From positions 1,314 to 65,313 of the forward strand of contig JAFGQU010000004.1 of assembly GCA_016935525.1 (NCBI GenBank): 64,000 nucleotides of DNA. The letters run 5' to 3'. A program made the translations under genes and the position numbers. The DNA comes from Candidatus Omnitrophota bacterium. Lineage in GTDB: Bacteria > Omnitrophota > Gorgyraeia > Duberdicusellales > 4484-171. Shown piece after piece: positions 7,578 to 62,741 of the stretch. The number at the start of each line of letters is the position of its first letter. The stretch's first letter is position 1. The notes beneath the pieces are model-generated. The model had not been told where the DNA came from, did not search any database, and was given only the letters and a program-made list of their open reading frames with translations.

Positions 7578-9221
7578 CTAATTTTTCCGGTATTTTTCCG
7601 TTACCCAGAATTCCATGTATTTACCTAACATCAGGCGGGTTTGCGCGTCCAGGGCGGGAACAGCGCTTAATACGATAACGGCCACCGGAATAAAGAACCA
7701 CTCGAAAACGTGTCGTACCTTTTTGAATATTCCGTATCGCACTCTGCTTTTAGGTAAAAGCAGCGAACTGATGATCATACATATGAATATTCCCATTGAT
7801 CCCAAACTATAAATCGTTCCTTTAATACGGGGAGCGGTATAATAAATCATACTCGAAGAAAACGCCTGGGAAGCGAAAAGGCCGGGCATCCATAATCCAA
7901 AAGATAAGAGAAACGACCAGGTCGCCCAGGAAATAAACCCTTCCAGCATTTTATAGGTATGAGATATTTTCTTACGAAACGGTATAGACCGGGATTTTAA
8001 AAAGGCCCGGATGACGATCGGTAAGTTCTCCACGCCCCAGGCCCAGCGGCGTTTCTGTTTATAAATATTTAAAAACGTCTTTTTCATAGACGGGCCGGTC
8101 GCGATATCCATGGAAACGATCGTATATATCGGAACAGCCTGATAATTCCCGTCATAATGGATGAACGCTTTCCAGAATATCGCCGAATCATCGGAAATCA
8201 TATCTACCGGCCAGCAGCCTACCTCCATCAACGCTTTGAACGTCATACTGTGGCTTGAAAAGGTAACCAGCTTTTGAGGATTGGTCGCTTCGATCAATTG
8301 GAAGAACGAGGTCCCGATATCGATGATCCGGGCAAAAGCCGGCGCTTCCCAGACATTATTGTGATATACGGGAATAGGTTGATAACTTGATTTTAACCGG
8401 TCGGGAGAGATCATAAAATAATACGTCAAACAACCGAAATAACGGGAGTTAGGAACGGTATCGGCATCAAAACAGGAAACCAGAACGTTTTCAAACGGAA
8501 TATTGCGTTTCGTAAGATATCCCGCGGCCCATTTGGCGGCATGAGTGGTATTTGCTCCTTTTACTTTCGCTTCACCCGGCTGACCGGCCGGATGGATGAT
8601 GACTACAAAATCGAGAAACACGCCTTTATATTTTTCTTTTATCCGATACATGTCTTGTTTGACCTCATCGGTCGCGCTTTCTTCCAGAGCGATTATGACC
8701 AAGAACCTTTTGCAAGGGTAATTGCCTTCTTTAATCGCTTTCACCCCCGGTTCTACGATATCGATAGTTTCCCGGATGACCGGGATGATCACCAGATGAT
8801 GGATATCCCGGGACAATGGCGGTAAGTCATCCCTTCGGATAAGCCCCCTCAATTGTCGACAATAGAGGTATGCCGATATCTTATTTTTGAGGCTATTGAT
8901 CTTATCCGGTTCACAAAAATCCGGTGCCCGCGATCGCAATTGATCTATGGCTGATATCCGTTCCATCCAGTCGGTATTTTTTTCGATCTCAAGACGCATG
9001 TAAGAAAGAATAAGAAAAATATTCATGTACACCAGCCTGAGCAGCCAGTAAAGGATAAACGCGATCATAAATACGGCCGCGGCGAGAGGCTGCACTATCG
9101 AAAATACAAATATTCCGATGATAATCGTCCAGCTTAACGCGCCGGGAACGATCTCCAGGAACCGTTCGAGCCTTTTTTCTTTCTCCGAGAGTACATATCG
9201 AGAATATTTGAAATCCATCAC
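7578..9221 (-). CDS. Processive family-2 glycosyltransferase (cellulose-synthase-like exopolysaccharide synthase). No PilZ domain.
   Basis: Multi-pass membrane protein. CFDADT is a DxD motif. QKRRWAWG is the Q(Q/R)xRW motif of processive GT2 synthases. The start overlaps the upstream gene stop (ATGA). Confidence 0.75.
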   Translation of the reverse strand: MMDFKYSRYVLSEKEKRLERFLEIVPGALSWTIIIGIFVFSIVQPLAAAVFMIAFILYWLLRLVYMNIFLILSYMRLEIEKNTDWMERISAIDQLRSRAPDFCEPDKINSLKNKISAYLYCRQLRGLIRRDDLPPLSRDIHHLVIIPVIRETIDIVEPGVKAIKEGNYPCKRFLVIIALEESATDEVKQDMYRIKEKYKGVFLDFVVIIHPAGQPGEAKVKGANTTHAAKWAAGYLTKRNIPFENVLVSCFDADTVPNSRYFGCLTYYFMISPDRLKSSYQPIPVYHNNVWEAPAFARIIDIGTSFFQLIEATNPQKLVTFSSHSMTFKALMEVGCWPVDMISDDSAIFWKAFIHYDGNYQAVPIYTIVSMDIATGPSMKKTFLNIYKQKRRWAWGVENLPIVIRAFLKSRSIPFRKKISHTYKMLEGFISWATWSFLLSFGLWMPGLFASQAFSSSMIYYTAPRIKGTIYSLGSMGIFICMIISSLLLPKSRVRYGIFKKVRHVFEWFFIPVAVIVLSAVPALDAQTRLMLGKYMEFWVTEKYRKN

Positions 9222-10663
9222 CGATTCTCCTGTCTCTCTTTTTCACCAAACGCGAAAGGTATCATCGTTTCTTTAAGGAGGATCTTCAGTTTCTTTAGAC
9301 CTCCGTTTTGATCCAAATAATATATATATCCGTCCTCATCGGAATAAAAGATATCGGAATTATTCTGAGCTCTGACGATATATTCGAGGTGGTGCTTTTC
9401 GTCCGACATCAATTCCAGTAAAAACAACCGGTCTCTCTCCCGGTAAAGTATATGAGTCCCGTTATGCACCCAAAAACATTGAGCGATGTTCCGGCCGCCG
9501 CTATAGACTAACCGCACCGAAACCGGATACTGGAATAACGATTCGCTGTCATCTTCACCGGTGAAATCGGCGACCCAGATCGTATCGTTCGTCCAATAGA
9601 GAAGACGTTTTCGCTGTTTATTATAATCCACTCCTTTCACCCCTTCCTCAGCGAGGATATGCGGCGGAATCGTTACGATCAAATCTCCTTTATCGCCCCA
9701 AAACAGAAACACATCGTTATCAAGAAACCGTACCCGGTAAGACCGTGATGTATCGAATATTCTTTCTCCGAAATATTTACCTTCAAACAGTACCGTAGAC
9801 AGCTCAAGGTCTACTGTCGTTCGTAAAAAAGAGTTGTTTTTCTCCAAGACATACAGCCATCTTCCCGAAGCGCCGAACCCTTTCATCTCATTGATAAAAC
9901 GGGGAGACAACGACATTTCCCGGAAATTCACGCGGTTCACATACCCGTTATACACCGCGAAACAATCTTCCTCATCCAAAACCCTCCACAGAAATCTATC
10001 GGGTTTCTCGGAGATAAGTTTCGTAATATCTACGGGTTCTTTTTCCCCTTCGGTGAGATCGATCAAATAAAACTTTTTATCCCACAACGACCCGCCGTAC
10101 ACGATGGCACTTTTTCCGCCTCTTAGCAAGTATAGTGAAGATACCGCAAAATCCCGAGTCGGTGCGTATTCATTCGTAAAAGAAACAACTTTCTCTTTTT
10201 TCCGGTCGAAACCATAGAAATCTTTAAGCTGGGCTCCTTTTTTCAGTATAACTCCTCCGCTTTCCGGAAAAAACATCAGGCTTGCGTATTTCGATTCCGA
10301 AGAAAGTTCCTGCGGTTCCCATACCGCGGGAACAAGAAGGATATTATTAAATGCCGATGCTTTGCCTTCTTCAATCGTCACCCGATGCCGCCAGGGACGA
10401 AACCCTTTCAACCGGACCGTTACTTTATATTTTCCGGGAAGCAGTTCGGTAATTGAGGTAGGGGTTTTATATCTAAACCGGCTGTTTTCCAGATATACAT
10501 CGGCTCCGGAAGGGATTGTCGCCAGATGAATCAGGCCGGTATGGGAGATCTCTTTCTTTATAGGGTGGAGAATATATCCGAACGAATAAAAAATGATGAG
10601 AGGGCAAAGTATGCAATATGCCGCTAAGAAAACATAAAAAGTGATTTTTCGCGCGATAAACAT
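9218..10663 (-). CDS. Membrane-anchored periplasmic protein with a PEGA domain and a large beta-rich domain. Putative co-polymerase partner of the GT2 synthase (BcsB-like role).
   Basis: N-terminal TM helix. The PEGA-like segment is IPSGADVYLENSRFRYKTPTSITELLPGKYKVTVRLKGFRPW. About 380 aa of W/Y/F-rich repeats follow. First gene of the three-gene operon. Confidence 0.5.
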   Translation of the reverse strand: MFIARKITFYVFLAAYCILCPLIIFYSFGYILHPIKKEISHTGLIHLATIPSGADVYLENSRFRYKTPTSITELLPGKYKVTVRLKGFRPWRHRVTIEEGKASAFNNILLVPAVWEPQELSSESKYASLMFFPESGGVILKKGAQLKDFYGFDRKKEKVVSFTNEYAPTRDFAVSSLYLLRGGKSAIVYGGSLWDKKFYLIDLTEGEKEPVDITKLISEKPDRFLWRVLDEEDCFAVYNGYVNRVNFREMSLSPRFINEMKGFGASGRWLYVLEKNNSFLRTTVDLELSTVLFEGKYFGERIFDTSRSYRVRFLDNDVFLFWGDKGDLIVTIPPHILAEEGVKGVDYNKQRKRLLYWTNDTIWVADFTGEDDSESLFQYPVSVRLVYSGGRNIAQCFWVHNGTHILYRERDRLFLLELMSDEKHHLEYIVRAQNNSDIFYSDEDGYIYYLDQNGGLKKLKILLKETMIPFAFGEKERQENR

Positions 10664-10765: not shown

Positions 10766-11074
10766 TCAATGGACAGATATTTTTCGGGCATGCAGGAAGC
10801 TTTTTTCCACGGGTGCGGTTATTCTAAGCATGCCGTCCCGAAAATCGGCATCTATCCTTTTGGTATCTACCTCTTCGCAAAACCGGTAGCAGGAATCAAA
10901 AACCAAGTCCTCCTTTTTCGCTTTCAGGCAGAACCCGGCTTTTCCGGCATCCAACACGATATCTCTTTTTCTCACTCCGGCCAGATCTATCTCGGTAGTA
11001 ATGGTGCTTCCTTCATCGCTGTAATACATGTCTACCGGCGGACACATATGAAATTCTATCTTTTCTCTTTTCAT
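10766..11074 (-). CDS. Hsp20/alpha-crystallin family small heat-shock protein.
   Basis: IDLAGVRKRDIVLD and FRDGMLRITAP are the alpha-crystallin domain hallmarks. Confidence 0.55.
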   Translation of the reverse strand: MKREKIEFHMCPPVDMYYSDEGSTITTEIDLAGVRKRDIVLDAGKAGFCLKAKKEDLVFDSCYRFCEEVDTKRIDADFRDGMLRITAPVEKSFLHARKISVH

Positions 11075-11358
11075 ACCCCCCTCCTTTTACGCCTTGCATC
11101 TTCTTAAATAGCCTCTCCCCCTTTTTTATTTAGATAAGGGAAATCGAAGAAAGTTTCAAATAAAGACGGTATTTCCAGGGAAATCAGGAAGGGAAAAAGA
11201 ACGGGCATACTGCGGTCAACAGGTAAGACGGAATGCGCCGGCTATTTTTCTGCCGGTTTTCACGCGTTCATTAAAAAGAGAAACTGCCGTGGCGTGTCTG
11301 TTTTTTTTCACTATAAACTCACGGCCGACGATTATCGACTATTCGGGCGGGATCAGGG

Positions 11359-11787
11359 TTAAACCGTTTTAATCCATCCCTCGATTGTTTCCTTGATTTT
11401 ATCTCTTACGATCCTGGTTTTCGCTAATTTTTCCTGGGGTGAACCCTGAAAACTCGAGGGATCGGCGAATCCCCAGTGAAGCATCCGGAGCGTATTAGGA
11501 AAAATCGGGCATTTCTGCGACTGCGATTCATCACATACGGTGATGACGTAATGGTACCGTTTACCCTGTTTGTAGAAATCGAACGCGCTTTTGGTCTTAT
11601 TCCCGGAAATATCGATGCCGATCTCTTTCATGACCTCGACCGCTACCGGGTTCAACCTACCCGGTTCAAGGCCGGCGCTTTCGACTTCAAACCGGTCGCC
11701 GGCAAGCTGTTTTAAAAAAGCCTCCGCCATCTGGCTGCGGGCCGAATTATGCACACAGACAAATAAAACCTTCAATTTATCACTCAT
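11359..11787 (-). CDS. arsC: Arsenate reductase of the LMW-PTP/thioredoxin-coupled family.
   Basis: [15 protein letters not shown] contains the CX5R P-loop. Downstream cysteines are in the expected context. Confidence 0.85.
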
Positions 11788-11805
11788 AAGATCTCCTCCT
11801 TCTTT

Positions 11806-12015
11806 TTATTTAATGTACAATTCGGTAAGGATAAACATTAATAACGCTATAATAGATAATATTCCAACAACCAGATATCCTTGAACCAGATTATCTTTAA
11901 TTGGACACTCGCATTCTTTATTGTCACATTTTCTGGATTTCCACATAAAATACCTGTAAATGCCCAAGAAAAAAAGAACAGATACGACGGATTGAATCAA
12001 TATTTTAATATTCAT
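11806..12015 (-). CDS. Small two-TM membrane protein with an inter-helix Cys cluster (CDNKECECP), sitting in the ars operon.
   Basis: Internal start MNIKIL is preceded by GGAGG 8 nt upstream. The longer track start at 12036 is less likely. The Cys-rich loop lies between two hydrophobic helices. Confidence 0.35.
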
Positions 12016-12157
12016 GGTTCTGACCTCCGCTAACATGGTTACCTGTACTCGAGATAAAAAGACAACAAGGTCCCGACTTGCCTCGTTCAGGAGAAGACAG
12101 CAATGCAGACACTAACAACCCCGCCACAACAAGGATGTATTTAAACCACATTTTCAT
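12005..12157 (-). CDS. Small (50 aa) secreted or membrane peptide with a signal-peptide-like N-terminus and a CC motif. Below the ORF-track size cut-off.
   Basis: Translation is [50 protein letters not shown]. It lies between ACR3 and the small membrane protein and overlaps the latter out of frame. RBS is weak. Confidence 0.2.
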   Translation of the reverse strand: MKMWFKYILVVAGLLVSALLSSPERGKSGPCCLFISSTGNHVSGGQNHEY

Positions 12158-12179
12158 GTTTAAACCCCGTTAGAGAATT

Positions 12180-13364
12180 TCATCTTCGAGCGTTGGTCTT
12201 CTCTAACGGGGTAAACCAATATTGTGTATTAAGACAGAATTTAACAAGCATCAACATTACCGGAACCTCAATGAGAACCCCAACTACGGTCGCCAGAGCC
12301 GCTCCGGATGACAGGCCGAATAACATTGTCGCGGTAGCGATAGCAACTTCAAAATGGTTGCTTGCCCCGATCATGGCCGACGGCGCCGCGTCTTCATAAC
12401 TCAATTTTATTTTTTTCGCCAGCCAGTACGTAATCGCGAATATTAAACAAGTCTGTATAAAAAGCGGTATCGCGATCCACAATATCGTCAACGGTTGAGA
12501 AAGGATAATCTCACCTTTAAACGAAAATAAAAGGACAAGCGTTACCAATAACGCTGTTATTGAGACCGGCGCGAGAACGTGCAGGAACTTCTCGTTAAAC
12601 CATTCAATCCCTTTAGAACCGATGATCCATTTTCTTGAAAAATAACCGGCGATAAGCGGCAGCGCGACATAAATCGCGATAGACAGCAACAACGCCTGCC
12701 AGGGAACCGGCATACGCCCGATTCCAAGAAGAAAGCCTCCCAGGACACCGTACAGCAAAAGCATTGTCAAAGAATTGATCGCGACCATGACCAGAGTATG
12801 TCCGTCATTTCCTTTGGATAAATATCCCCACACCAGCACCATCGCCGTGCACGGCGCGATACCAAGCAAAATACACCCGGCAAAATAACTTCGCCATAAC
12901 GGGACCTGTAGCATTTTCATCCCTTCATGAAAAACTACTCTTCCTGAGCCGTGAATAGAGCCCAGGACCCAATCCGCGCCGGGAGGAAGTTTCACGAAAT
13001 CTACCGCTTCCGGTCCGATCAGGCCTTTAAACAATACCCCCAAAAACAAAAACGCGATACCGTACATGGTAAACGGCTTTATCGCCCAGTTCACAAATAA
13101 AGTCAACCCGACCGGCTTCGGGGATTTTCCCGCTTTGATGACTTCCGCGAAATCAATTTTTACCATAATGGGATACATCATAAAAAACAGACATACTGCG
13201 ATCGGAATGGAAACCACCGGAGCGCCGCTCACATTTATGGCAAAGCTATCAAGCGCCTTAGCAACACCGGGTGCCATTTTCCCCAGCAGTATTCCGGCAC
13301 CGATGCAGGCAATCACCCATACGGTCAGATATTTCTCAAAAAACCCTAAACTTCTTTCAGCCAT
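12180..13364 (-). CDS. acr3: Arsenite efflux permease of the ACR3 family.
   Basis: [10 protein letters not shown]-terminal signature. Ten-TM profile and the correct length. Confidence 0.85.
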
Positions 13365-14423: not shown

Positions 14424-15177
14424 CTGGCAACCTACGCGGTTGCCAGGTAATTACTCATCATCAACATCAAAAATAAGACTTTTTATTTTTGCTAACTCCC
14501 GCTGATAAGAAATCCTGTCTGCAACGAAATCCCGATATATTTTGGGACACATCTGAAATAAATCGCTGTATTCACAAATTTTTTCCGTATCCTTATCAAA
14601 AGCGATATATTCCCTATACGAAGATGGTTCCCATTCACAAAGATTCTCTACAAGACAAGCTGTCGTCGGATTGAGATGGATATACCGGGTTAAATGCAAC
14701 AATTGTTCATCGTTTTCTACTAAAACTTTTTTGAAACGACTTTCCCATAGTGGCCCTTTTCTATTATGTTTTGTATTAAAATAACGCGTATAGCTGTTAA
14801 GAATATTATTCATAAAATTTGATATTCCGTTATCTGCCACTTGTTTCAGTATTAAATGGATATGAGTAGGCATAAAACAATAAGCAATAATCTTTACTAT
14901 TTTTTTGTGAGCATCAAGTATCTCTTTGTTTCTTTCCGTATCATTTGCCGCGCGATTGAACTTGCTAAAACTAATAGCTCTATGCTGATATCTATAATAT
15001 CCTATCATTCTCCTCATACGCAGGTAATCACACTCATTATGGAATATTTCGAATTTTGCAATAGTGCGTGAATATACATGATATATTTGCCCTGTCGTTA
15101 ACATTTCAACTTTGTTCGTACGCATTGATTGTGTCCTCTACTCACCTCTGGCAACCGCGTAGGTTGCCAGAGGTGAG
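14422..15177 (-). mobile_element. IS200-like/REP-associated tyrosine transposase (RAYT) element bounded by inverted REP-like hairpins.
   Basis: Hairpin 14422..14448 is acctggcaacc-tacgc-ggttgccaggt. Hairpin 15141..15177 is ctcacctctggcaacc-gcgta-ggttgccagaggtgag. They are mutual reverse complements and immediately flank the Y1 transposase gene. Confidence 0.65.
14451..15125 (-). CDS. HUH-Y1 transposase of the IS200-like family (RAYT-like, 224 aa).
   Basis: The HuH motif is HIHLIL. The catalytic Tyr region is RYIHLNP. YHVYSR and GPLWESRF are typical of PF01797. Confidence 0.7.
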   Translation of the reverse strand: MRTNKVEMLTTGQIYHVYSRTIAKFEIFHNECDYLRMRRMIGYYRYQHRAISFSKFNRAANDTERNKEILDAHKKIVKIIAYCFMPTHIHLILKQVADNGISNFMNNILNSYTRYFNTKHNRKGPLWESRFKKVLVENDEQLLHLTRYIHLNPTTACLVENLCEWEPSSYREYIAFDKDTEKICEYSDLFQMCPKIYRDFVADRISYQRELAKIKSLIFDVDDE

Positions 15178-15271: not shown

Positions 15272-16171
15272 TTAGTAAGTCTTTACGGTCTCCAAACCGG
15301 TCAGCCCCTTCGCTACGAGCCAGGCAACGAGAAAGGTCAGAGCTACACCGATGAGTCCGGCAAGACCGGTCGCCAGCATCTCATTACTGATTGCCGAAAC
15401 AGTATAATCCGGCAGAGGGCTGACGAATGCCGGAGCAGATTCGTGGAGAAAACTGTATTTTTCCGCGACCCATTCCAGCCCGTCCGGCAGGCCGCTGGCA
15501 AACGGGCTTAACAGAGTTGCAATGATTCCCGATGCAATAAGCGGGACTGTAACCGACCGTCTTTGCGAAACCGCCGTTACTTCGAAACGTAACGCCGCGC
15601 ATACGGCGACAGTGATCAACGCTTCCCCTATACCGATAAAGGCGTGCGTCGAAAGCATCGCGCCGGCAACCTGGAAGAACCCGATCGTTCCGGAAAGAGC
15701 AAGTTCGATACTGCAGACCAGAGCGGCAAGCATCACCGCACACCACGCCGCTATACCTACGCGCGCAACACTGTCTCGATTTCTGTTCAATGCCGCGTAG
15801 ATCAATCCGCCTAACCCGGCGCCGATAATCGCCATGTTAAGGATATTCGCTCCCAGCACCGTAAATCCGCCGTCGGCAAATACCAGGCATTGAATAGTTA
15901 CCACAAGCGCCATCGAGAGTACCCCGAACGGGATTCCCAACAAACTTGAAGCCAGTACTCCTCCCAGCAGATGGCCGCTCGTTCCGCCGTTGATCGGAAA
16001 ATTCATCATCTGACCGGCAAAGATCAACGCGGTAATCGCGGCAAACTTAGCGGACTGCGGTTTCGTTTTTGACCGAAACGCGAAGAACGCGGCCAGACCG
16101 ACTCCCAGAGCGCTGACTACGGCCGTCACCGGACAGATCGTTCCGTTTAACATTTCATTCGGTATATGCAT
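15272..16171 (-). CDS. cbiM: ECF-type Ni/Co transporter substrate component CbiM/NikM, possibly an M-N fusion.
   Basis: The N-terminus MHIPNEML matches the MHIxDG-type CbiM start. About eight TM helices. NikR lies nearby. Confidence 0.7.
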   Translation of the reverse strand: MHIPNEMLNGTICPVTAVVSALGVGLAAFFAFRSKTKPQSAKFAAITALIFAGQMMNFPINGGTSGHLLGGVLASSLLGIPFGVLSMALVVTIQCLVFADGGFTVLGANILNMAIIGAGLGGLIYAALNRNRDSVARVGIAAWCAVMLAALVCSIELALSGTIGFFQVAGAMLSTHAFIGIGEALITVAVCAALRFEVTAVSQRRSVTVPLIASGIIATLLSPFASGLPDGLEWVAEKYSFLHESAPAFVSPLPDYTVSAISNEMLATGLAGLIGVALTFLVAWLVAKGLTGLETVKTY

Positions 16172-25736: not shown

Positions 25737-27608
25737 TCATGGTTTTTTGAGAAGATAGGCCGGATAAACCTCATTTAAAAATTCGACCTTACCCTGAGCT
25801 ACCAACCTATACTCTTTGGAAACCGCGACAAAATCAGCTAATTTTGCGATTTCATCTTTAAGCGGCGTATACGCAATCCTACTGAGGAAATCATTGACTC
25901 CTTGCCGATCGATCCATATATCAAATCCTTTCCCATACGACATAAATCCCCCTCTCCCTTCTCGCCGATATATATGCTGCCACATATAGACAGTACTTAA
26001 CGGTGGGTCAAAAGGGATGTTTTTAAAATTGGAATAGTCTTTTTTCAGCCAACACTCTCTTGATCGGGGAACATCGACTACTATAATATAGTCGAATGTA
26101 TCATAATATTTAAAAAATTGCCGGTAAGGATTATACGCCGCTTCAATAGCGGAAAAAATAAATTTCTTCCTCAACAGATACTTTAAAAAGGTTAATTCGT
26201 TCCCGCCGAGAACCCCTTCCCGGCGTACGATCCCTACCCGTAAACGGTCCTGAGGGACCGTTTCCAGCTCATCTTCAAACGCGGCCAGGGTCTGTTCGGT
26301 AAAACGAAGCGGTGCGGGTTTACGCACCCAATAGTATTTTTCGTTGGTATAGAACCAGGAAAAATATATATAGTGGATAACACATAATCCGATAATGGCC
26401 ATACATACTGTCTTTTTGTATTTTAGCCAAAGCGTTTTATACCGGAAGCTATTGATATGAATATACGAAAGGCCGTGTACCGACAGCAATCCTATCGCGG
26501 GCAAAAGAGGAAATACATATTTTGGACATCTATTCGCTAAGCAGGAAAACAACCCTAACGGGACAGCTATCCACATAAACAGAATAGATTCTTTTACATT
26601 AACTCTCTTTTTGAAAAACAATAAAGAGAATAGGCCGATTAAAAAGAGGATAAGAAAAGGCCAGGAAACAAATGGGATAATCCCATGTTTCAAATAATAT
26701 CTTATAGGAACCGGGTTGTATTCCCCTTTGACAGAGATAGAGATTACGTCTTCTAAGCTGAAAGTGGATGCGCCGCCCGGATATATCGCTATGTTGGAAA
26801 ACTGTTGTACAATAGCAGCTATATTCCCTTTCCACCAGAACGAAGATATGGCCAAGAAAAAAACCAAAGCCCCAACTAATCCTAAGATTGTCGATATCCC
26901 GACATTTTCCTGGCGTCTATACCATCTTTTCAGAAAGACTAAAAATACAATAAGGATCGGAAAAGAAACAAAAAAAATGATCTGCGGTTTCATTAAAATT
27001 CCCAACCCCAAAATTATTCCTAAAGATAGAGTCGGAATGATCCTGGTAAAATAACGAGAATACATAAGCAGACAGATAGCCGCACTGGTAAAGGCGACTA
27101 ACGGGAACTCGTGAGAATACCCCCGGCTGGCGCCCAATATACCCGGATAGAGTGACACCAGAAAAGCCGCCCACAGACCGGTTTTTTCGTCTTTTATTAT
27201 TTTCCCGATGAAATATACCGAACACATCAGGATCACAAAATAAAAAATGTTGATACATTTCACGAGAAATACCGAAAAGCCCAGGATATATATGAACGGT
27301 ACGGCCGCAAGGAAGATCAACCGGGATTTATCGACCCCGGTAATCGAGTCGCATTTGTAAGTATTTTCAAGAAGTGTCCCGGCGTGACGGACAAGATCTA
27401 AAGGAGAAGATGCGGACCGGGTAAGATCCAAAAATTCTTCATAGAAACTGATTAAATTATTGAAATGGATGTCCTCATTCAAAGCGACGATGTTAGACCC
27501 GTCCCGATAAAGCCAAAGAGCATTTCCGATACAGTGAAAAAGGATTATTAACCCCAGGAAAACATATTCCCGTTTTAATCCTAAAAATATTTCGTTGTGT
27601 TTCGTCAT
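25737..27608 (-). CDS. GT-C fold integral membrane glycosyltransferase (ArnT/PMT-like) with a C-terminal soluble domain.
   Basis: About 12 TM helices in the first 430 aa. The hydrophilic C-terminal domain of about 190 aa matches GT39/GT83 topology. Confidence 0.4.
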   Translation of the reverse strand: MTKHNEIFLGLKREYVFLGLIILFHCIGNALWLYRDGSNIVALNEDIHFNNLISFYEEFLDLTRSASSPLDLVRHAGTLLENTYKCDSITGVDKSRLIFLAAVPFIYILGFSVFLVKCINIFYFVILMCSVYFIGKIIKDEKTGLWAAFLVSLYPGILGASRGYSHEFPLVAFTSAAICLLMYSRYFTRIIPTLSLGIILGLGILMKPQIIFFVSFPILIVFLVFLKRWYRRQENVGISTILGLVGALVFFLAISSFWWKGNIAAIVQQFSNIAIYPGGASTFSLEDVISISVKGEYNPVPIRYYLKHGIIPFVSWPFLILFLIGLFSLLFFKKRVNVKESILFMWIAVPLGLFSCLANRCPKYVFPLLPAIGLLSVHGLSYIHINSFRYKTLWLKYKKTVCMAIIGLCVIHYIYFSWFYTNEKYYWVRKPAPLRFTEQTLAAFEDELETVPQDRLRVGIVRREGVLGGNELTFLKYLLRKKFIFSAIEAAYNPYRQFFKYYDTFDYIIVVDVPRSRECWLKKDYSNFKNIPFDPPLSTVYMWQHIYRREGRGGFMSYGKGFDIWIDRQGVNDFLSRIAYTPLKDEIAKLADFVAVSKEYRLVAQGKVEFLNEVYPAYLLKKP

Positions 27609-27621
27609 AACAGGATGATCG

Positions 27622-29055
27622 CTACCCTTTCACCGGAAAACACACATCACTTTTGACAGTCATCAGCCCTATCGCTGACCGCGCATATCGTGCGAATTCA
27701 TCAAAAGATTTTATATTGCATAACGTATCGATAAGATACCCGGGCCTAAAATAAAAAGACCGGTAGGCACGTATCGTAAAATCTTCTATTTGCTTTTCGG
27801 TCAGGCCGGTCCAGGGCGAAGGTAACCGTTCTTCACCGGCAACGCCTAATACGAATTCCCGCCAATAATCTCTTTTCATGATGACTTTCACCTGTTCATA
27901 CAGTTCGGTACACGGTTTTGCCATGACTTTATGAAACTGGGCATAATCGACTTTTAATTGTTCGGCGAAACGTATCGTTTTTTTCACGCTCTCTACCGTA
28001 TCTTCCGGCGCCCCGATCAGGAAAAATCCCAACGCTTTCATCCCCTTGGCTTTGGTCATAACGATTGCGCGTTGTATCTGGGCAATAGTGATCCCTTTTT
28101 TTATCGTATCGAGAATACGCTGGTCGCCCGATTCTATACCGTACAGAATTTTTTTAAAGCCGGTCCGGGCCATAATCGCTAACAACTCTTCATCTACCTG
28201 GTCAATCCGGGCCCGGCAGGAAAAGTGGATATCAAGTTTCCGGTTTTGTATCTCCCGACAGATCTCGATAATGCGTTGTCTATCGATGGTAAAACTGGGA
28301 TCGAATATATCGATCTCACGGATATTATATTTCCGGTAACATTGTTCGATCTCATCGGCCACGCCCACCGGCGAGCGGCAACTGTAAGGGGTATTCTGGA
28401 TATGACAGAACGAGCATTTACCGGGACAACCTTTACTGGTCATCAATATCGTGAAGTTTTTTCTTTTGGACATGACTTCCCGATAACACTGGTTAGGAAG
28501 CAGATGCCGGGCCGGAAAAGGCAACGTATTAAAATCTTCATAAAAACTTCCGGGATAATGGATAACGACTTTCCCGTTTTTTCGAAACACTATCCCTTCT
28601 ATATCTTCCAGAGAACCGTTTTTTTCTAAAGCCGAAAGCAGTTTAGGAAGAGAGTGTTGGGCCGAGCCGATAATCCCGTAATCGATCTCTTTATGGCTAA
28701 ACGTCTCCTCCGGGTAAAGCTGTAATTGGATATTCCCTACCAGTATCGGGGCGTTAAGATGTCTTTTGATATACTTTATCCAGGATAAGGTGAGTTGAAA
28801 AGTCCATACCGTAAGCATGAACCCGATCAGGTCGGGATTAAACTCCCGTAATATCTTCACTGTTTTTTCCTCACTGAACCTTAACGCATTCGCGTCTATA
28901 ATGATCACGGTATGGCCGGATTGTTCCATAATCGCCGCCGCATAGGCGAGCCCTAAAGGCGGCATAAGTCCGAATTCACGGCCGACCACATCGATATCTT
29001 CTTCGAACCGTCTATGCCGGTGGCTATAATGAGGAAATACAAGCGCGATGTTCAT
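27622..29055 (-). CDS. B12-binding radical SAM protein (HpnJ-like architecture).
   Basis: N-terminal B12-binding Rossmann region. The radical SAM motif is CPGKCSFC. 477 aa. Its stop overlaps the start of the YdjC-family gene. Confidence 0.7.
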   Translation of the reverse strand: MNIALVFPHYSHRHRRFEEDIDVVGREFGLMPPLGLAYAAAIMEQSGHTVIIIDANALRFSEEKTVKILREFNPDLIGFMLTVWTFQLTLSWIKYIKRHLNAPILVGNIQLQLYPEETFSHKEIDYGIIGSAQHSLPKLLSALEKNGSLEDIEGIVFRKNGKVVIHYPGSFYEDFNTLPFPARHLLPNQCYREVMSKRKNFTILMTSKGCPGKCSFCHIQNTPYSCRSPVGVADEIEQCYRKYNIREIDIFDPSFTIDRQRIIEICREIQNRKLDIHFSCRARIDQVDEELLAIMARTGFKKILYGIESGDQRILDTIKKGITIAQIQRAIVMTKAKGMKALGFFLIGAPEDTVESVKKTIRFAEQLKVDYAQFHKVMAKPCTELYEQVKVIMKRDYWREFVLGVAGEERLPSPWTGLTEKQIEDFTIRAYRSFYFRPGYLIDTLCNIKSFDEFARYARSAIGLMTVKSDVCFPVKG

Positions 29056-29876
29056 GCCGCTCTCTCTTCGGTCGATCCTATCTCATATTCAGCAATCATT
29101 TCCCGGACATCATCGGATAATAACGCATGCGTTTCCTGATCCCGGCTTTTACCCGGCGCGGTCCGATCAACGCGATGGCCGGGATGGACCATCAATTCAG
29201 TAACCCCTGGGGGTAATGAATGTAACATAGCAATTAAATCTTTTTTTTGCACACGACAGCTCCGGTCAAACCCTTTAAACCAGTTACTGGTCTGTAACCC
29301 CTTATTTTGAATTTTTTTTCTTAACTGGGCTGCGCAATATCGCACCGCCGCCCCTAACAGAGTCCGCCGTTCGGAATAAGGGCATCGTACGTAAGGGATC
29401 CCGTATTCTTGAGCGCACTCCAGCAGAAAATCGGTAAAAAAAGGGAAAAGATGAGTATGCTGATGACTGTCAAGATGGGTAAGGATAAACCCTTCCCTTT
29501 TTATCCGTTCGATCTGGGCTTCGACTTCTTGTTTCACCCTTACCATATCTATTTTGCCTAAAAAGAAATTTTTTATTATCTCCGGATACCGCGGGAAGAA
29601 AAAACCTTCGGGAGACGTGAGCCCTTTGATGGGTCCGGACAACGGTCTCCCTTCACCGACCAAGACAATATGTATCCCGATGGCACGGATCCCTTCTTCT
29701 TTTAAGAGAGCGAACGATTCGGGTATTCCCGCAATATCATGCGCGCACAGTGAAACGCGATGCACACTTCCGGCTTTATAACAGGCGATGATGTTTTTAT
29801 TGATTTCTTCAGCGAAACCATAATCATCGGCATTGATTATGATCCGTTTTGAACTATGAGGAGGTTCGACCGACAT
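29052..29876 (-). CDS. YdjC/ChbG/HpnK-family carbohydrate deacetylase.
   Basis: IINADDYGFAEEINKNI is the YdjC N-terminal metal-binding motif. The HLDSHQH motif follows. Confidence 0.75.
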   Translation of the reverse strand: MSVEPPHSSKRIIINADDYGFAEEINKNIIACYKAGSVHRVSLCAHDIAGIPESFALLKEEGIRAIGIHIVLVGEGRPLSGPIKGLTSPEGFFFPRYPEIIKNFFLGKIDMVRVKQEVEAQIERIKREGFILTHLDSHQHTHLFPFFTDFLLECAQEYGIPYVRCPYSERRTLLGAAVRYCAAQLRKKIQNKGLQTSNWFKGFDRSCRVQKKDLIAMLHSLPPGVTELMVHPGHRVDRTAPGKSRDQETHALLSDDVREMIAEYEIGSTEERAA

Positions 29877-29918
29877 GGTATACGTATTATAACAAAAAAC
29901 ATATATCCGGCCCGGATA

Positions 29919-30401
29919 CTATTCCTGCCGGACCCGAAGAGGAATATTGCCGCTTTTAAAATGTTTTTCGATCCATCCGTTTTTTATATCATCACGGGAA
30001 TCGAAATGCACCACATACGGCTTGATATCCAGTAAGGGCGTCCTGTCCAGCATATCGACCTGGGAAAAAGCGATGACGTTTTCCTCGATTTTCTCCAGTT
30101 TCACGATAGAGATCCCGATATGGTTCGGACGCAGGGGGCTTCTGGTGGCAAATACACCGTGCGATTCGTCTTCTAAAAACGGTTTGGCCACGGTCTTCTC
30201 TTCCTGAGCCCGGTTGAAATAATAAATAAGGATAAGATGAGAAAATCCTTCGATATCTTTCAATCCTTGTCTATATTCGGGAAACACCTCGATCAGGCCG
30301 ATTGTGTCTTTTTCGAATGTGCCCTGGATAGGCATCCCTTTATCATATTTATAGGGAGTATGGATCACTCCTATCGGTTTAAGTATGATCTCTTCTTTCA
30401 T
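29919..30401 (-). CDS. trmO: TrmO/TsaA-family tRNA (m6t6A37) methyltransferase (UPF0066).
   Basis: IGVIHTPY..RPNHIGISIV..LLDIKPY are conserved TsaA-like motifs. Confidence 0.7.
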   Translation of the reverse strand: MKEEIILKPIGVIHTPYKYDKGMPIQGTFEKDTIGLIEVFPEYRQGLKDIEGFSHLILIYYFNRAQEEKTVAKPFLEDESHGVFATRSPLRPNHIGISIVKLEKIEENVIAFSQVDMLDRTPLLDIKPYVVHFDSRDDIKNGWIEKHFKSGNIPLRVRQE

Positions 30402-33854: not shown

Positions 33855-34979
33855 TTACTTTTTATTCCCGTTCCCGTTATCGTTTATCTTCAGTTTACTG
33901 TTATCCATAACTATCTTCTCGACTTCGGCGAGCAATTTCGGTTTAATGTAATGGCTGATGGTAACGGTAGAATTCTCTTTCCATACCTGGTTCTTCTTAT
34001 CGAACCGTTTATGCCCCAAGCGTTCGGCGATCTCGAGGTATAACTCACGGATATCCTCTTTGGTGGCTTCTTTTCTGGTCTTAAGGAAATATTTTACCCG
34101 GGCAGTCGCGAAATACGACCTCACGATATGCGGAAAAAATTCTTTACCGCAGTACCGTTTGAACGCTTCGCGGAAATGGATATCCTGCAGGGGCCGGCGC
34201 GTATGTCCGTTTATAAATACATATTCGTTTCTTTTCTTACTTTTAAGTATTTTCCGTAATCTCTCTATGTAGATGTCGGGAAACCGCCGTTTGATCTCGA
34301 TAGGGACGCCGTCTTTTCCGATATAATTAAAGGTCACCTGGTTTTTCCGGATCGTGATATCTTTTTTCTTAAGCGTAGTCAATCCTTTATGTCCGCTGGT
34401 CTTATAATAGATCTCGTTGCCGATACGCATATACGTCTTAAGCAGAGTATACATCGGCACGGCCATGGCATCTTCGGGATCGTGGAGCGCCCGGCGCAGG
34501 TTTTTTCGGAGTTTACGGAAATACCGTTCAAAATCTTTTACTACCTGATATTTCCTTTTTACAAGTTCTTTCTTTTTCTCAAGCGTATAGACATAAGAGT
34601 AGGTCCCGCCGGGATTCTTGTAAAGGACATTCCAATGGTAATTCGAGTTCTCGTTATGGATGGTCAGTTCCGGAGAGAACAGAGAAAAGGCTTTATCCAG
34701 CTTTTTGCCGTTCGGCAGCACGTTGATCCGGGCCCCTTGAGGCTGTCCGTCAGGAGACAACTGGCCCTTAAGAAATTCGGGATTTTTTTTATCGATAAGG
34801 GCGCTGAACCGTTTATGCGCTTTGAAAAGCTTAATGACCAGGAGTGCTTCGGGAAAAGTCCGGGATGATCTTTTCCACCCTTTTCTACTTCTCTCATATA
34901 CCTTAAGCCCCACAGCCTTTATGCGGACCGTCCCGGGGAGAGTTATCTTCACTTTCATCTTTTTCTTCCGTTTTTTCAT
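33855..34979 (-). CDS. Eukaryotic/poxvirus-type DNA topoisomerase IB.
   Basis: RIGNEIYYKTSGHKGLTTL matches the conserved TopIB (R/K)xGNE..G..L core. Further basic catalytic residues are present. A SHY tyrosine lies near the C-terminus. Lys-rich tails. Confidence 0.55.
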   Translation of the reverse strand: MKKRKKKMKVKITLPGTVRIKAVGLKVYERSRKGWKRSSRTFPEALLVIKLFKAHKRFSALIDKKNPEFLKGQLSPDGQPQGARINVLPNGKKLDKAFSLFSPELTIHNENSNYHWNVLYKNPGGTYSYVYTLEKKKELVKRKYQVVKDFERYFRKLRKNLRRALHDPEDAMAVPMYTLLKTYMRIGNEIYYKTSGHKGLTTLKKKDITIRKNQVTFNYIGKDGVPIEIKRRFPDIYIERLRKILKSKKRNEYVFINGHTRRPLQDIHFREAFKRYCGKEFFPHIVRSYFATARVKYFLKTRKEATKEDIRELYLEIAERLGHKRFDKKNQVWKENSTVTISHYIKPKLLAEVEKIVMDNSKLKINDNGNGNKK

Positions 34980-35598: not shown

Positions 35599-37101
35599 TT
35601 AACGGGCCCGCTGAGTTTTTTTAGTCAATTCACTTAAATATTTTTTTACCGGAAGGCCGATCTCCTCGGCACGCAGGCGCCATTCCCAGTTGCCTTTAGC
35701 CACCGAGGGGACATTCATCCGGCAATCTTCTCCCAACCCCAGTATATCCTGAATGGGAAAAATAACGGTATTGGCCCGGGAATCCATGATCCGGCCGATA
35801 AATTCTTGCGCGACCCCCTCCGGCGTCGCCTCGGCTCCTAAAAATTCACCTACTCTACGCAGCTCTTCTTCACCGGCTTCATGTTCAAACCATCCCCGCG
35901 CGGTATTATTGTCATGCGTACCGGTATAAGCAATACAATTTTTCTCGTAATTCCGCGGCAAATAAGGATGCCGGGGATTATCTTCGCCAAAAGCGAACAA
36001 AAGGACTTTCATTCCGGGCAGTTTGAACTTTTTCATTATTTCTCTCACATCGTCAGTGATCAAGCCTAAGTCTTCGGCAATGATCGGTAACGGCGAGAAC
36101 TCACTCCTCAATGTGTTGAGGAAACTTTCAATCGGGGCCTTTACCCATTCTCCGTTGATAGCGGTCGTCTCCCCGGCAGGGACCTGCCAGTACGCGACTA
36201 ATCCCCGGAAATGATCGATCCTTACAATATCAAAAACACTCAAGTTATGTTCCATACGGGTCATCCACCAGGTAAACCTTTTTTGTTTCATCACGTTCCA
36301 TCTATACAGAGGATTACCCCAAAGCTGGCCGGTCGAGCTGAAATAATCCGGGGGAACTCCGGCAACATGCGTCGGTTTTTTCTGAGCGTCTAATTTGAAC
36401 ACACCCGTACTCTTCCATACCTCAGCGCTGTCGTAACTGACATAGATAGGCATATCGCCGATGATCTTTACCCCTTTCTTTTTACAATATTTCTTAAGCG
36501 CATACCACTGGCGGAAAAATATGAACTGCAGGAATTTTTCTTTTTCGATCTCACCGGAATGCTGTTTTTTGAATTCATTGAGGTCTTTTGTTTTGCGATC
36601 CCGCAAGCTTTCCGGCCACCCGTCCCAGGATTTTCCGCCCAATACCCGTTTGATCACTACAAATAAAGCGTAATCTTCGAGCCAGTAAGAATGCTGAGTA
36701 CAGAATTTTTCATATTCCGGCAGTCTCTTTTTTTGTGAGGAAAATTTCTCAAAAGCACGGCTATATAACCGCATTTTATACTCGGTGACCGCGGCATACT
36801 CGCATCGCCGGGCGGGAAAATCCGGCAGAGGCTCTATCTCATCCGGTGAGAGAAATTGTTCTTTGATAAGCAGGTCCGGACTGATAAAAAGAATATTACC
36901 GGCAAACGCGGAATTACTGCTGTAGGGAGAATTCCCGCAGGCTGCATCGGTAGGGTTTAACGGTAATATCTGCCAATAACTCTGCCGGGCCTCACTAAGG
37001 AAATCGACAAACGTATAGGCGTCAGGACCGAAATCACCGATACCGTATCTTGAAGGCAATGAAGAAATATGCAGGAGTATCCCGCTTGCCCTTTTTTTCA
37101 T
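35599..37101 (-). CDS. malQ: 4-alpha-glucanotransferase (amylomaltase, GH77).
   Basis: The MKKRASGILLHISSLPSRYGIGDFG N-terminus is typical. 500 aa. Confidence 0.85.
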   Translation of the reverse strand: MKKRASGILLHISSLPSRYGIGDFGPDAYTFVDFLSEARQSYWQILPLNPTDAACGNSPYSSNSAFAGNILFISPDLLIKEQFLSPDEIEPLPDFPARRCEYAAVTEYKMRLYSRAFEKFSSQKKRLPEYEKFCTQHSYWLEDYALFVVIKRVLGGKSWDGWPESLRDRKTKDLNEFKKQHSGEIEKEKFLQFIFFRQWYALKKYCKKKGVKIIGDMPIYVSYDSAEVWKSTGVFKLDAQKKPTHVAGVPPDYFSSTGQLWGNPLYRWNVMKQKRFTWWMTRMEHNLSVFDIVRIDHFRGLVAYWQVPAGETTAINGEWVKAPIESFLNTLRSEFSPLPIIAEDLGLITDDVREIMKKFKLPGMKVLLFAFGEDNPRHPYLPRNYEKNCIAYTGTHDNNTARGWFEHEAGEEELRRVGEFLGAEATPEGVAQEFIGRIMDSRANTVIFPIQDILGLGEDCRMNVPSVAKGNWEWRLRAEEIGLPVKKYLSELTKKTQRAR

Positions 37102-37150
37102 TTTTGTTCTCCTTACGCCGCAGACCGACCAAGTTTAAGAGATACCTAGA

Positions 37151-38383
37151 TCAACCTTGCAAGAAAAAAACCATAAGCGCGAGATAATCGCTAAGATGGC
37201 GGGTAATCAAAAAGTTGCGACGAGTATATTCTTTCGCGTTTTCTCCGATACGGGCAGCTGCTTCCTGATTGTTCAATAAATACCGTATACGGTAAGCGCA
37301 CCCTTCAACAGAATTCACCGTAAACCCGGTACGGCCGTACACGATCTGGACCGTGATCCCGCCTACGGCTCCGCCGATCACCGGTTTCCCTTTCCACATC
37401 GCCTCGGCCACGGTAAGCCCGAACCCTTCTTTGGTGGATTTCTGCAAAATAACCGTGGCCGCCCGTTGAAGAGCGTTGATCACGGAATTCGCGTCCGGCG
37501 GAAGGTCAAGAATAATGATATCTTCGTCCTGCCGAGCCGCTTCTTGTACGTCATGCAATACCTGTAACCCTTCCGGATCATCCGTCGCGCTCCCGCCGGC
37601 AAGAATAAGCCGGCAGGCGTTATATTTTTTAACGATCCGGTAGGCTTCGATCACCCCCAGCGGGTCTTTGAACCGGTCGAAACGGGATACCTGCAGAATG
37701 ATCGGTTTATCGCGGGGGATAGCGTATTGAGTCAACACCCCGTTTATTTCTTCCTCGGTCAATTCTCTATTTTTATCGCTTAACGGGTCAATGGAAGGAT
37801 ACATCAAAAACTGCGGAATCGAAAGTTTCTGGGCAAAATTCGGCAACGAGAATATCGCTCCGTCGTATCGGGATACGTATTCTTTTAAAAAGTTCCAGAC
37901 TTTACGCTGGGGACGGGAAATATCGATATGGCAGCGCCATAACCATTTTGCTTTTCTGGGTTTTTTATAAATAAATCCGGCCGGCTGGGGATCGTGAATC
38001 ACTGTGAAATCGGCGTCGAAAGAGATCTTACGCGCGTTCTTTTTATTCACTTTTATGTATTCTTCGTACATCTGAGAAGTTATCAACTGCGCCTGTCCCT
38101 GTAACGCGTTATGAAAACTTTTTGTGGTCTGATAAAACAAAGGAGTCCCCTCGATGATCTCCCAGCGGGTAGGGATCTCTAATTCATTGAAGAACGGCAC
38201 AAGACGAAGCAACATTTCCGCGACCCCGCCGCCCAGGCGCGTAGAATTTACATGCAGGAGCGTTCGATTTTTAAGCCGTTCGGCAAGATGGTAAATCAAA
38301 TCGACCGACCCGGGAGGAGTTACTTCGCGATAGGATTGAAGCGATACCATGTTATCCATGCAATTCTCCCTGGCATAAATCAA
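37151..38383 (-). CDS. GT4-family glycosyltransferase (TreT-like trehalose or glycosyl-glycerate synthase).
   Basis: HVNSTRLGGGVAEML N-terminal motif. Retaining GT-B C-terminus (E..KEGFGL). Confidence 0.55.
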   Translation of the reverse strand: MIYARENCMDNMVSLQSYREVTPPGSVDLIYHLAERLKNRTLLHVNSTRLGGGVAEMLLRLVPFFNELEIPTRWEIIEGTPLFYQTTKSFHNALQGQAQLITSQMYEEYIKVNKKNARKISFDADFTVIHDPQPAGFIYKKPRKAKWLWRCHIDISRPQRKVWNFLKEYVSRYDGAIFSLPNFAQKLSIPQFLMYPSIDPLSDKNRELTEEEINGVLTQYAIPRDKPIILQVSRFDRFKDPLGVIEAYRIVKKYNACRLILAGGSATDDPEGLQVLHDVQEAARQDEDIIILDLPPDANSVINALQRAATVILQKSTKEGFGLTVAEAMWKGKPVIGGAVGGITVQIVYGRTGFTVNSVEGCAYRIRYLLNNQEAAARIGENAKEYTRRNFLITRHLSDYLALMVFFLQG

Positions 38384-39050
38384 GCAATTTAATCCTTAAC
38401 GCTTCCAGACTGTACATATAGCTGTCGATCATTTCAAACTTATCAGCAAGTTCTTTACGTCCTAACACCTGTTCGATCCATAAAGCAAAATCGCTTCTTC
38501 CCAGCCTGTCGCGCAGACGGGCTTCAAATACGTGATTATAAATAGCGCTGGCATCGGTTGTTTTTAACGCTTCGACGAATTCCGCCAGGTTCGCTACCGA
38601 TACGCCGGTAGGGACCTCGATGATATGGGACTGCATAAAATAAAACGGCTGGCCGTAGACAACCGCCGGGACCGTCTTAAGTTGAGACAAATGGCTGTCG
38701 ATGATCTCGATAAATTCGCTGCGGATATCTTCGATCGTCTTGCCGCCGCTTGCGGTCACATCGGCAAGTCTTTCTCCTAATACCCGATCGCGCACCTGGA
38801 TCGCCGCCCAATTGGCGAAATCATTAGGGTATTCACCGGAAATATAGTAATGACGTAAAAAATAACTGTGGGTATGGTAATAGATCGAATCGACCGGGAC
38901 CTCTTCAATAAGTTCAAGAAGCTCCTGCTCATCATCGGCTCTTTTACCGAGAAGTTCTTTGATCTCGATGCATCCCATAAAATGGAATTCGTTCATCGTC
39001 CGCCTTCCTTGCGATCTAATAAAAAATACACAAACTCTCTCATCGGACAA
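38352..39050 (-). CDS. Hypothetical protein whose gene overlaps the GT4 gene by 32 nt. The start may be the internal Met at 38994.
   Basis: No recognisable motif. Operon context with the GT4 gene and malQ. Confidence 0.3.
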   Translation of the reverse strand: MSDERVCVFFIRSQGRRTMNEFHFMGCIEIKELLGKRADDEQELLELIEEVPVDSIYYHTHSYFLRHYYISGEYPNDFANWAAIQVRDRVLGERLADVTASGGKTIEDIRSEFIEIIDSHLSQLKTVPAVVYGQPFYFMQSHIIEVPTGVSVANLAEFVEALKTTDASAIYNHVFEARLRDRLGRSDFALWIEQVLGRKELADKFEMIDSYMYSLEALRIKLLDLCQGELHG

Positions 39051-61191: not shown

Positions 61192-61208
61192 ATAAACTCC
61201 TTATCTTA

Positions 61209-61772: not shown

Positions 61773-61785
61773 AGGACTGTTCTTT

Positions 61786-62730: not shown

Positions 62731-62741
62731 AGATTGGGAAA

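Follow-up and report, generated by a model that had tools for sequence, protein, structure and literature searches.

Decoration of the cell envelope by the Arn, NaxD/FlmK, and Lgm systems governs how the cell surface is charged, how well antimicrobial peptides are resisted, and how the immune system recognises the cell. GT-C enzymes take lipid-phosphate sugar donors, as has been established for ArnT and PMT, and, to our knowledge, in the known versions of amino-sugar envelope decoration the lipid-linked donor undergoes no other than conventional chemistry. In Bordetella, modification with glucosamine (GlcN) requires lgmABC. NaxD, a member of the YdjC superfamily, deacetylates undecaprenyl-phosphate-N-acetylgalactosamine before transfer to lipid A (PMC11279074), and FlmK, an orthologue of ArnT, transfers galactosamine (GalN) to lipid A (PMC4402001). 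Here, we describe a three-gene operon in a 64,000-nucleotide stretch from the metagenome-assembled genome of an uncultivated Candidatus Omnitrophota bacterium (contig JAFGQU010000004.1; the whole stretch is referred to as the window), which encodes a YdjC-superfamily deacetylase, a B12-binding-domain radical S-adenosylmethionine (SAM) enzyme, and a GT-C integral-membrane glycosyltransferase. We propose, with confidence and doubt in about equal parts, that this operon tailors and transfers a lipid-linked amino sugar and constitutes a variant of the Arn, NaxD/FlmK, and Lgm systems with an additional radical step.

The operon and its three products

All three open reading frames (ORFs) were verified at their coordinates (Table 1) and lie on the minus strand in the order YdjC, radical SAM enzyme, GT-C. 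The stop codon of the YdjC gene and the start codon of the radical SAM gene share an ATGA, giving a 4-nt overlap (GCATGAAC), and 13 nt separate the radical SAM stop codon from the start of the GT-C gene. An earlier, sequence-only reading of this stretch had described the three genes, their domains, the overlap, and the INADDYG motif correctly. The trio is flanked by housekeeping genes encoding TrmO, a PilZ protein, a Na+/H+ exchanger, a zinc-ribbon protein, an rRNA-methyltransferase-like protein, and a YgiQ-type radical SAM protein. Because a terminator-like hairpin with a T-run (29919..29903) is located directly 3' of trmO, the gene upstream of the trio, and a TATAAT box (29891..29886) precedes the YdjC ATG by 9 nt, consensus-level signals suggest that the trio forms its own transcription unit. 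Given that the promoter and terminator scan of the window returned counts at or below shuffled expectation (for terminator-like sites, 6 found versus 7.7 expected, and hence no enrichment), this boundary should be read as suggestive. Scanning the window against Rfam and for tRNAs produced no match, cobalamin riboswitches included.

The first gene product scores 180.7 bits against the Pfam family YdjC (PF04794; cut-off 29.7), and its residues D17, D18, H69, H134, H138, and H140 are invariant in an alignment of 28 sequences. We predict that the protein N-deacetylates a membrane-anchored N-acetylhexosamine (HexNAc). Its closest relatives (43-44% identity) are encoded directly upstream of orthologous radical SAM genes in the related loci L082/L083, L087, and L180/L181. 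The next-closest relatives (30-34% identity, 138-150 bits) belong to overlapping GT2-YdjC-PMT_2 operons, one of which is embedded among lpxK, lpxB, lpxI, lptF/G, and genes for an MsbA-like ABC transporter and a lipid A acyltransferase. Among 80 distant metagenomic YdjC loci, a GT2 gene is adjacent in about 22, a PMT_2 gene is present in 9, and the arrangement YdjC-LPG_synthase_TM-PMT_2 recurs in several; the radical SAM family of the window was found in none of the 80.

The second gene product matches both the B12-binding (PF02310, 68 bits versus a cut-off of 32.1) and the Radical_SAM (PF04055, 65.5 versus 29.5 bits) domains of Pfam, and its cluster motif CxxxCxxC (C210/C214/C217) is invariant. 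Judged by domains, motif, and fold, it is a radical SAM enzyme with an N-terminal B12-binding-like domain (class B type), which may or may not make use of cobalamin. The AlphaFold2 (AF2) model of this protein has a pLDDT of 91.3, and its neighbours among solved structures are AprD4, MgmA, TsrM, OxsB, CysS, and TokK, with AprD4 (PDB 6fd2) being the top match by sequence (77.8 bits) as well as by fold (Foldseek E 1.4e-25, TM 0.70). AprD4 is the radical SAM 1,2-diol dehydratase of apramycin biosynthesis and targets the glucosamine ring of paromamine; its N-terminal B12-type domain is reported not to use cobalamin, and its substrate is a soluble aminoglycoside. A grouping with characterised non-lipid enzymes had been named by the sequence-only reading as a point that would count against it; sequence comparison places the protein in a large family that has no name and groups with no characterised enzyme. 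This family returned 1,990 matches, of which the best 120 listed have 45-73% identity, and it occurs in metagenome-assembled genomes (MAGs) that carry the labels Omnitrophota, Elusimicrobia, Planctomycetes, and Desulfobacterota. A cultivated sulfate reducer, Solidesulfovibrio carbinolicus, has a surface-glycan cluster on its plasmid pDCAR1 (56947..82311; L175) that includes four radical SAM genes, and one of these four proteins is 29.8% identical to the window enzyme over 95% of the length. This cluster could serve as a culturable model for the family.

The third gene product scores 32.8 bits against PMT_2 (PF13231; cut-off 26.1), which bears out the earlier description of a GT-C enzyme, rather than the GT2 HpnI, beside the pair. 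About ten hydrophobic segments span residues 15-421 and are followed by a soluble C-terminal domain of approximately 200 aa. The protein reaches 345 bits against a hidden Markov model (HMM) built from 17 PMT_2 proteins of radical SAM clusters, a score that is inflated because the model includes the protein's own copy (L001). Comparison of the GT-C family with E. coli ArnT by hhalign returned a probability of 84.8% (E 6.5e-6, 258 columns). Together, the Pfam match, the membrane spans, and the resemblance to ArnT identify the protein, at the level of sequence, as a PMT_2/ArnT-like glycosyltransferase. A word-indexed homologue search with this protein returned one relative, and an exhaustive HMMER search of 1.84 billion representatives yielded 1,784 relatives of its membrane domain, only two of which are full-length (36-37% identity). 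Against PDB sequences, there was no match even at E <= 1.

Conserved neighbourhoods and a proposed pathway

To examine the neighbourhoods of the radical SAM family, we clustered the ORFs of 80 genome loci and annotated them with Pfam, and partners were counted in the 73 loci that retained the central gene. In these loci, the family sits in glycan-type clusters. Further B12-domain radical SAM paralogues are the most frequent partners (adjacent in 20 of the 73 loci, anywhere in the locus in 38), and the others are SPASM-radical SAM proteins (9 and 34), GT9 (14 and 23), PF00535-type GT2 (6 and 22), flippase-type LPG_synthase_TM proteins (4 and 16), PMT_2 GT-C enzymes (6 and 13), and DegT aminotransferases (5 and 12). 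In four of the 80 loci (L031, L045, L047, and L056), as well as in P0105, the radical SAM enzyme is fused to a C-terminal GT2 domain; the domain of L047, the only fusion domain scanned, has weak top matches to PpgS, AglJ, and ArnC, which are all polyprenyl-phosphate glycosyltransferases. The window operon is a pared-down form of larger, multi-radical-SAM glycan clusters found in relatives. The large clusters (L002-L081, L082-L085, and L182-L183) combine up to about six B12-domain radical SAM paralogues with SPASM-radical SAM proteins, DegT, GT9, GT2, GT-C, AsnB, YfhO, and TPR proteins, and their hosts are MAGs of Omnitrophota, Elusimicrobia, and Desulfobacterota and MAGs labelled Planctomycetes. 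One of them (L082) encodes an 832-aa double-radical-SAM fusion. Our literature searches returned no account of such clusters.

The link between deacetylase and radical SAM enzyme is most apparent among the closest relatives. Orthologues of the radical SAM enzyme with 67-73% identity were found in L082, L084, L087, and L180, and a YdjC gene lies immediately 5' of the radical SAM gene in four of the five lineages with at least 67% identity. The two genes overlap by 4 nt in L082/L083 and L180/L181 as well, and are separated by 36 nt in L087. The L084 cluster contains a divergent YdjC gene and, one gene downstream of the radical SAM orthologue, a GT-C gene whose 623-aa product is 35% identical to that of the window. 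Relatives with 50-60% identity have no YdjC gene; their clusters carry a CE4 deacetylase (Polysacc_deac_1) that is not homologous to YdjC (L085, L182 with a 4-nt overlap, L183, L002, L003, L006, L007, and L010). This deacetylase is absent from all of the approximately 65 loci in which the radical SAM enzyme is less than 50% identical. Since YdjC lies upstream in the close relatives and CE4 takes its place in the next shell, deacetylation stays bound to the radical SAM clade of the window, whichever enzyme family supplies it. The exchange of one deacetylase family for a different one speaks for a single substrate on which both deacetylation and the radical step take place. PMT_2 genes occur in about 10 of the 14 adequately long loci with at least 50% radical SAM identity.

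We therefore consider a pathway of four steps, of which the enzyme families and the gene coupling are observed. First, a small DPM1/ArnC-type GT2 encoded outside the window would load HexNAc onto polyprenyl phosphate at the cytoplasmic face; because the window contains no such GT2, this step is taken from the relatives, in which a polyprenyl-phosphate-type GT2 is encoded next to the module. Second, the YdjC protein would remove the N-acetyl group. Third, the radical SAM enzyme, translationally coupled to YdjC, would modify the freed amino sugar, with C-methylation, an HpnJ/Cds-type rearrangement, and an AprD4-type dehydration of the glucosamine ring being the candidate reactions. Fourth, after flipping, the GT-C enzyme would take the modified sugar off its lipid carrier and attach it to an acceptor in the periplasm, for which lipid A, the core of lipopolysaccharide (LPS), or another envelope glycan is the likeliest candidate. 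The presence of a Lip_A_acyltrans gene in the window indicates that the organism makes lipid A. Around this gene, the window also encodes a radical SAM protein, a flavodoxin-like protein, and an FMN reductase (Table 1). In a more specific version of the pathway, which we put forward tentatively and hold to be the less probable for its added detail, the radical SAM enzyme acts directly on polyprenyl-phosphate-linked GlcN or GalN to give a C-methylated, deoxygenated, or ring-contracted (carbocyclic) sugar that the GT-C enzyme attaches to lipid A or to the core of LPS.

Several points weigh against a pathway on a lipid-linked sugar. Across the wider radical SAM family, the commonest adjacent glycosyltransferase is the heptosyltransferase-like GT9, and GT9 enzymes draw on nucleotide sugars. 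The GT2 family assignments all fall far under the curated cut-offs. The similarity of the GT-C enzyme to ArnT is moderate and leaves out the first periplasmic loop, and the AF2 model of the GT-C enzyme, calculated from a two-sequence alignment, is unusable (pLDDT 34). Neither a polyprenyl-phosphate-type GT2 nor a flippase candidate is found in the 64-kb window. In addition, we infer the substrate, the radical SAM reaction, and the acceptor alike, and the order of the steps could differ, such that the deacetylase and the radical SAM enzyme work on a nucleotide sugar or on a finished glycan.

The strongest competing explanation builds on this last point and keeps the glycan pathway while changing substrates or order: YdjC and the radical SAM enzyme would act on a nucleotide-activated sugar or an assembled oligo- or polysaccharide, and the GT-C enzyme would be a separate transferase or polymerase. 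We consider it unlikely, yet a serious contender. The large clusters with GT9, GT4, DegT, SPASM-radical SAM proteins, AsnB, and GH5 are typical of multi-step glycan assembly, the prevalence of GT9 (14 of 73 loci) fits the use of nucleotide sugars, and the substrate of AprD4 is a soluble pseudo-disaccharide. Likewise, the CE4 deacetylases of the sister clusters have their weak top matches among polysaccharide-acting enzymes, namely the XrtA-system deacetylase, PdaB, and NodB. However, the GT2 domains fused to the radical SAM enzyme resemble DPM1, PpgS, AglJ, and ArnC, the YdjC protein shows its affinity to the GT2-YdjC-GT-C operons, and a stand-alone trio ending in a GT-C gene is most economically explained by tailoring of a donor followed by its transfer.

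The sequence-only reading had regarded the radical SAM and YdjC genes as the HpnJ/HpnK signature pair of hopanoid side-chain formation. Under this explanation, the pair would deacetylate and ring-contract a GlcNAc (N-acetylglucosamine) head group carried by a hopanoid or by some other membrane lipid, giving rise to a cyclitol-ether-type glycolipid, which we judge improbable. Among the curated NCBIfam models, those of HpnJ and HpnK do give the two proteins their highest scores. Genuine hpnJ and hpnK likewise share a 4-nt overlap, and the gene after them is an LPG_synthase_TM gene, a type present in 16 of the related loci. The order of deacetylation and radical reaction would be the same, and squalene-hopene cyclase (SHC) is present in some Omnitrophota (PMC12324291). 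Orthology was nevertheless rejected on curated cut-offs, on comparison with a genuine operon, and on distance trees. The radical SAM enzyme reaches no NCBIfam cut-off, with 173.3 bits against the HpnJ equivalog model (TIGR03471) where 577.6 are needed, and the YdjC protein obtains 140.3 of 232.6 bits against HpnK (TIGR03473). We used the hpnI-hpnJ-hpnK-hpnL operon of a Mycetohabitans megaplasmid as the genuine reference. Its HpnJ is 24.5% identical to the window enzyme and, as a phmmer query, scores it at 90 bits, which is rank 124 of 209 B12-domain radical SAM proteins from the related loci; genuine BchE scores the window enzyme higher (116.7 bits). In neighbour-joining distance trees, which were calculated without bootstrap and used solely to establish non-membership rather than deep relationships, HpnJ attaches to a paralogue group other than that of the window enzyme. 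Genuine HpnK is 26% identical to the window YdjC protein (89.7 bits), compared to 34% (150 bits) for a deacetylase from a GT2-YdjC-GT-C operon, and genuine HpnI is of the GT21 type (PF13506), in contrast to the PF00535-type GT2 enzymes that accompany the radical SAM family. We know of no role for a GT-C enzyme in the hopanoid pathway. A Pfam scan covering every ORF of at least 150 aa in the window that is not nested inside a longer ORF detected no shc, hpnH, or hpnI, in agreement with the reported absence of a squalene-hopene cyclase from the window, and none of the three was found in 20 related loci with Pfam tables. All genomes in which HpnJ-domain proteins have been reported also encode SHC and HpnH (recent survey, same work as PMC12324291).

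For surveys of hopanoid producers, these results call for caution, as best-hit HpnJ and HpnK labels do not indicate hopanoid side-chain biosynthesis. The JGI label on a PMT-GT2-YdjC operon is an example of how such labels mislead: in JGI 3300067034 (L093), a protein encoded in this type of operon, without hopanoid genes, is labelled 'hopanoid biosynthesis associated protein HpnK'. This YdjC protein is a case of HpnK over-annotation and echoes a remark on 'spurious HpnK' made elsewhere (bioRxiv 2025.07.29.667474).

It is also quite improbable that the arrangement is the remnant of a decayed larger cluster whose genes no longer cooperate, or that the radical SAM enzyme serves an unrelated substrate. 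The trio does stand among housekeeping genes without the GT2, GT9, and SPASM partners of its relatives, the YdjC-radical SAM pair of L180 is similarly isolated, and GT-C types vary among the radical SAM relatives, with sequence similarity to the window GT-C enzyme detectable only in L084. On the other hand, function is favoured by the overlap of start and stop codons, by the intactness of the ORFs, and by the conservation of catalytic residues, the YdjC-radical SAM pair has been kept in at least four divergent lineages, and the deacetylase function has been replaced rather than lost in sister clades. As a further point that would count against it, the sequence-only reading had named orthology of the YdjC protein to ChbG. 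For such a role, in which the protein would deacetylate chitooligosaccharides in chitobiose catabolism, we see hardly any room: the two have the YdjC fold family in common and the PDB sequence matches include a chitooligosaccharide deacetylase (7vi8, 33.9 bits), but the ChbG chitin disaccharide deacetylase model (NF002559) gives 97.1 bits versus a cut-off of 227, the gene lies beside those of a radical SAM enzyme and a GT-C enzyme rather than in a chb operon, and no phosphotransferase system, chb, or glycosidase genes are adjacent.

A second B12-domain radical SAM pair and other features of the window

The window contains, as the sequence-only reading had correctly recorded, a second B12-domain radical SAM gene coupled to the gene of a PNPOx-like partner; the two overlap by 4 nt (Table 1). 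A CopA-type P-type ATPase is encoded on one side of this pair, and a glycoside hydrolase (GH42/GH10-like), a Glyco_trans_2_3 GT2, and a PEGA protein on the other. The same reading had joined this pair to the trio, a connection that we rejected: the second radical SAM protein is only about 27% identical to any radical SAM protein in the searched loci L002-L179, and its glycoside hydrolase, GT2, PEGA, CopA, and PNPOx neighbours have no homologues in these loci; no related locus offers a homologous context. The broader proposal of that reading, in which a glycosylated lipid or glycan undergoes B12-type radical chemistry, fits the conserved neighbourhoods of the radical SAM family, whereas the tie to the second pair found no support.

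Further features of the window are listed in Table 1. The fused cobalt-uptake component is consistent with the cobalamin or cobalt demand of several B12-domain enzymes, and a transposase-like ORF lies between its gene and that of a methyltransferase. The eukaryotic-type topoisomerase IB is uncommon in bacteria. Three genes form a glucan/trehalose block, in which the gene of the DUF5752 protein overlaps the TreT-type gene. The two phosphofructokinase paralogues are divergently transcribed, and a phosphofructokinase gene is also located just 5' of the YdjC-radical SAM pair in L180. An apparent arsenic-resistance set comprises a transporter and an ArsC-like ORF, the latter recognised from its CVHNSARS motif only, along with a small Hsp20-like ORF.

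Table 1. Coordinates of the operon and of other features in the window (positions count from the first nucleotide of the window; aa, amino acids).
Feature	Position	Strand	Basis or remark
YdjC-superfamily deacetylase, 274 aa, first gene of the operon	29052..29876	-	Pfam YdjC, INADDYG motif
B12-binding-domain radical SAM enzyme, 477 aa	27622..29055	-	Pfam B12-binding and Radical_SAM
GT-C (PMT_2/ArnT-like) integral-membrane glycosyltransferase, 623 aa	25737..27608	-	Pfam PMT_2
Putative operon boundary	29886..29919	-	Pattern scan and direct sequence reading, consensus-level
Second B12-domain radical SAM protein, 560 aa	4739..6421	-	Top NCBIfam model BchE, 101.6 versus 481 bits
PNPOx/HutZ-like protein	4260..4742	-	4-nt GTGA overlap with second B12-domain radical SAM gene
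Flanks of the second pair	1935..4217; 6504..10663		
Apparent arsenic-resistance set	10766..13364	-	
Hsp20-like ORF, small	10766..11074		
ArsC/LMW-PTP-like ORF	11359..11787		CVHNSARS motif
ACR3/SBF-family transporter	12180..13364		
IS200/Y1-type transposase-like ORF	14451..15125	-	PF01797, 39.6 bits
CbiM-PDGLE fused cobalt-uptake component	15272..16171	-	
Eukaryotic-type topoisomerase IB catalytic core	33855..34979	-	PF01028, 61 bits
GH77 4-alpha-glucanotransferase, TreT-type trehalose synthase (GT4), DUF5752 protein	35599..39050	-	
Two phosphofructokinase paralogues, 372 aa and 470 aa	45060..47637		
Lipid A acyltransferase with flanking genes	60166..63599	-	
Lip_A_acyltrans gene	61786..62730		

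Comparison with known systems

Searches of the literature found no YdjC-radical SAM pair described outside hpn and no radical SAM tailoring of polyprenyl-phosphate sugars; searches on cobalamin-dependent radical SAM enzymes with undecaprenyl phosphate and glycosyltransferases, and on B12-domain radical SAM enzymes with LPS clusters, returned nothing relevant. The coupling of deacetylase and radical SAM enzyme, which survives the exchange of YdjC for CE4, suggests that uncultivated anaerobes modify an envelope amino sugar by an as yet undescribed radical reaction. If the more specific version of the pathway given above holds true, the radical SAM family, with its roughly 2,000 members, would represent an anaerobic toolkit for unusual envelope sugars in Omnitrophota, Elusimicrobia, and Desulfobacterota. 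The trio offers a minimal, three-gene handle on this large family of anaerobic and mostly uncultivated bacteria, which elsewhere resides in clusters of 10-20 genes.

Four described systems invite comparison. AprD4 acts on an amino sugar, paromamine, as is proposed for the window enzyme after deacetylation. However, the two proteins are only 19-20% identical, the NCBIfam AprD4 model gives 95.6 versus 500 bits, the substrate of AprD4 is soluble, and no AprD3-like reductase partner was identified beside the window operon. With HpnI/HpnK/HpnJ(/HpnL), the operon has in common a YdjC deacetylase and a B12-domain radical SAM enzyme encoded by overlapping genes, as well as the chemical logic of deacetylation followed by a radical reaction on glucosamine (PMC13459092). 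It differs from this system in its reversed gene order, in the presence of a GT-C gene, and in lacking the shc/hpnH context.

ArnC/ArnD/ArnT resemble the proposed pathway in the succession of loading by a GT2, de-acylation on the lipid carrier, and transfer by a GT-C enzyme. The Pfam families of the E. coli proteins (PF00535, PF01522, and PMT(_2), respectively) are the three that also recur together in sister clusters of the window radical SAM enzyme; the CE4 proteins encoded next to the radical SAM relatives show no BLASTP similarity to ArnD at E <= 1e-3. In the window, by contrast, YdjC replaces CE4, the radical SAM step is without a counterpart in Arn, and nucleotide-sugar genes of the ArnA/B type are missing.

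NaxD/FlmF2/FlmK of Francisella and LgmA/B/C of Bordetella unite a YdjC deacetylase with an ArnT-like GT-C enzyme, which in the window are encoded in one operon, and in these systems the lipid-carried HexNAc is deacetylated before its transfer in the periplasm. This likeness is drawn from gene families and their arrangement, following the description of those systems. The window operon departs from them in placing a B12-domain radical SAM gene between deacetylase and GT-C, in having no GT2 gene, and in the unusual C-terminal domain of its GT-C enzyme. For the combination of YdjC and GT-C, NaxD/FlmK and LgmABC, whose route to lipid A modification leads over undecaprenyl-phosphate-HexNAc, are a closer precedent than hpn, and one that the sequence-only reading had missed.

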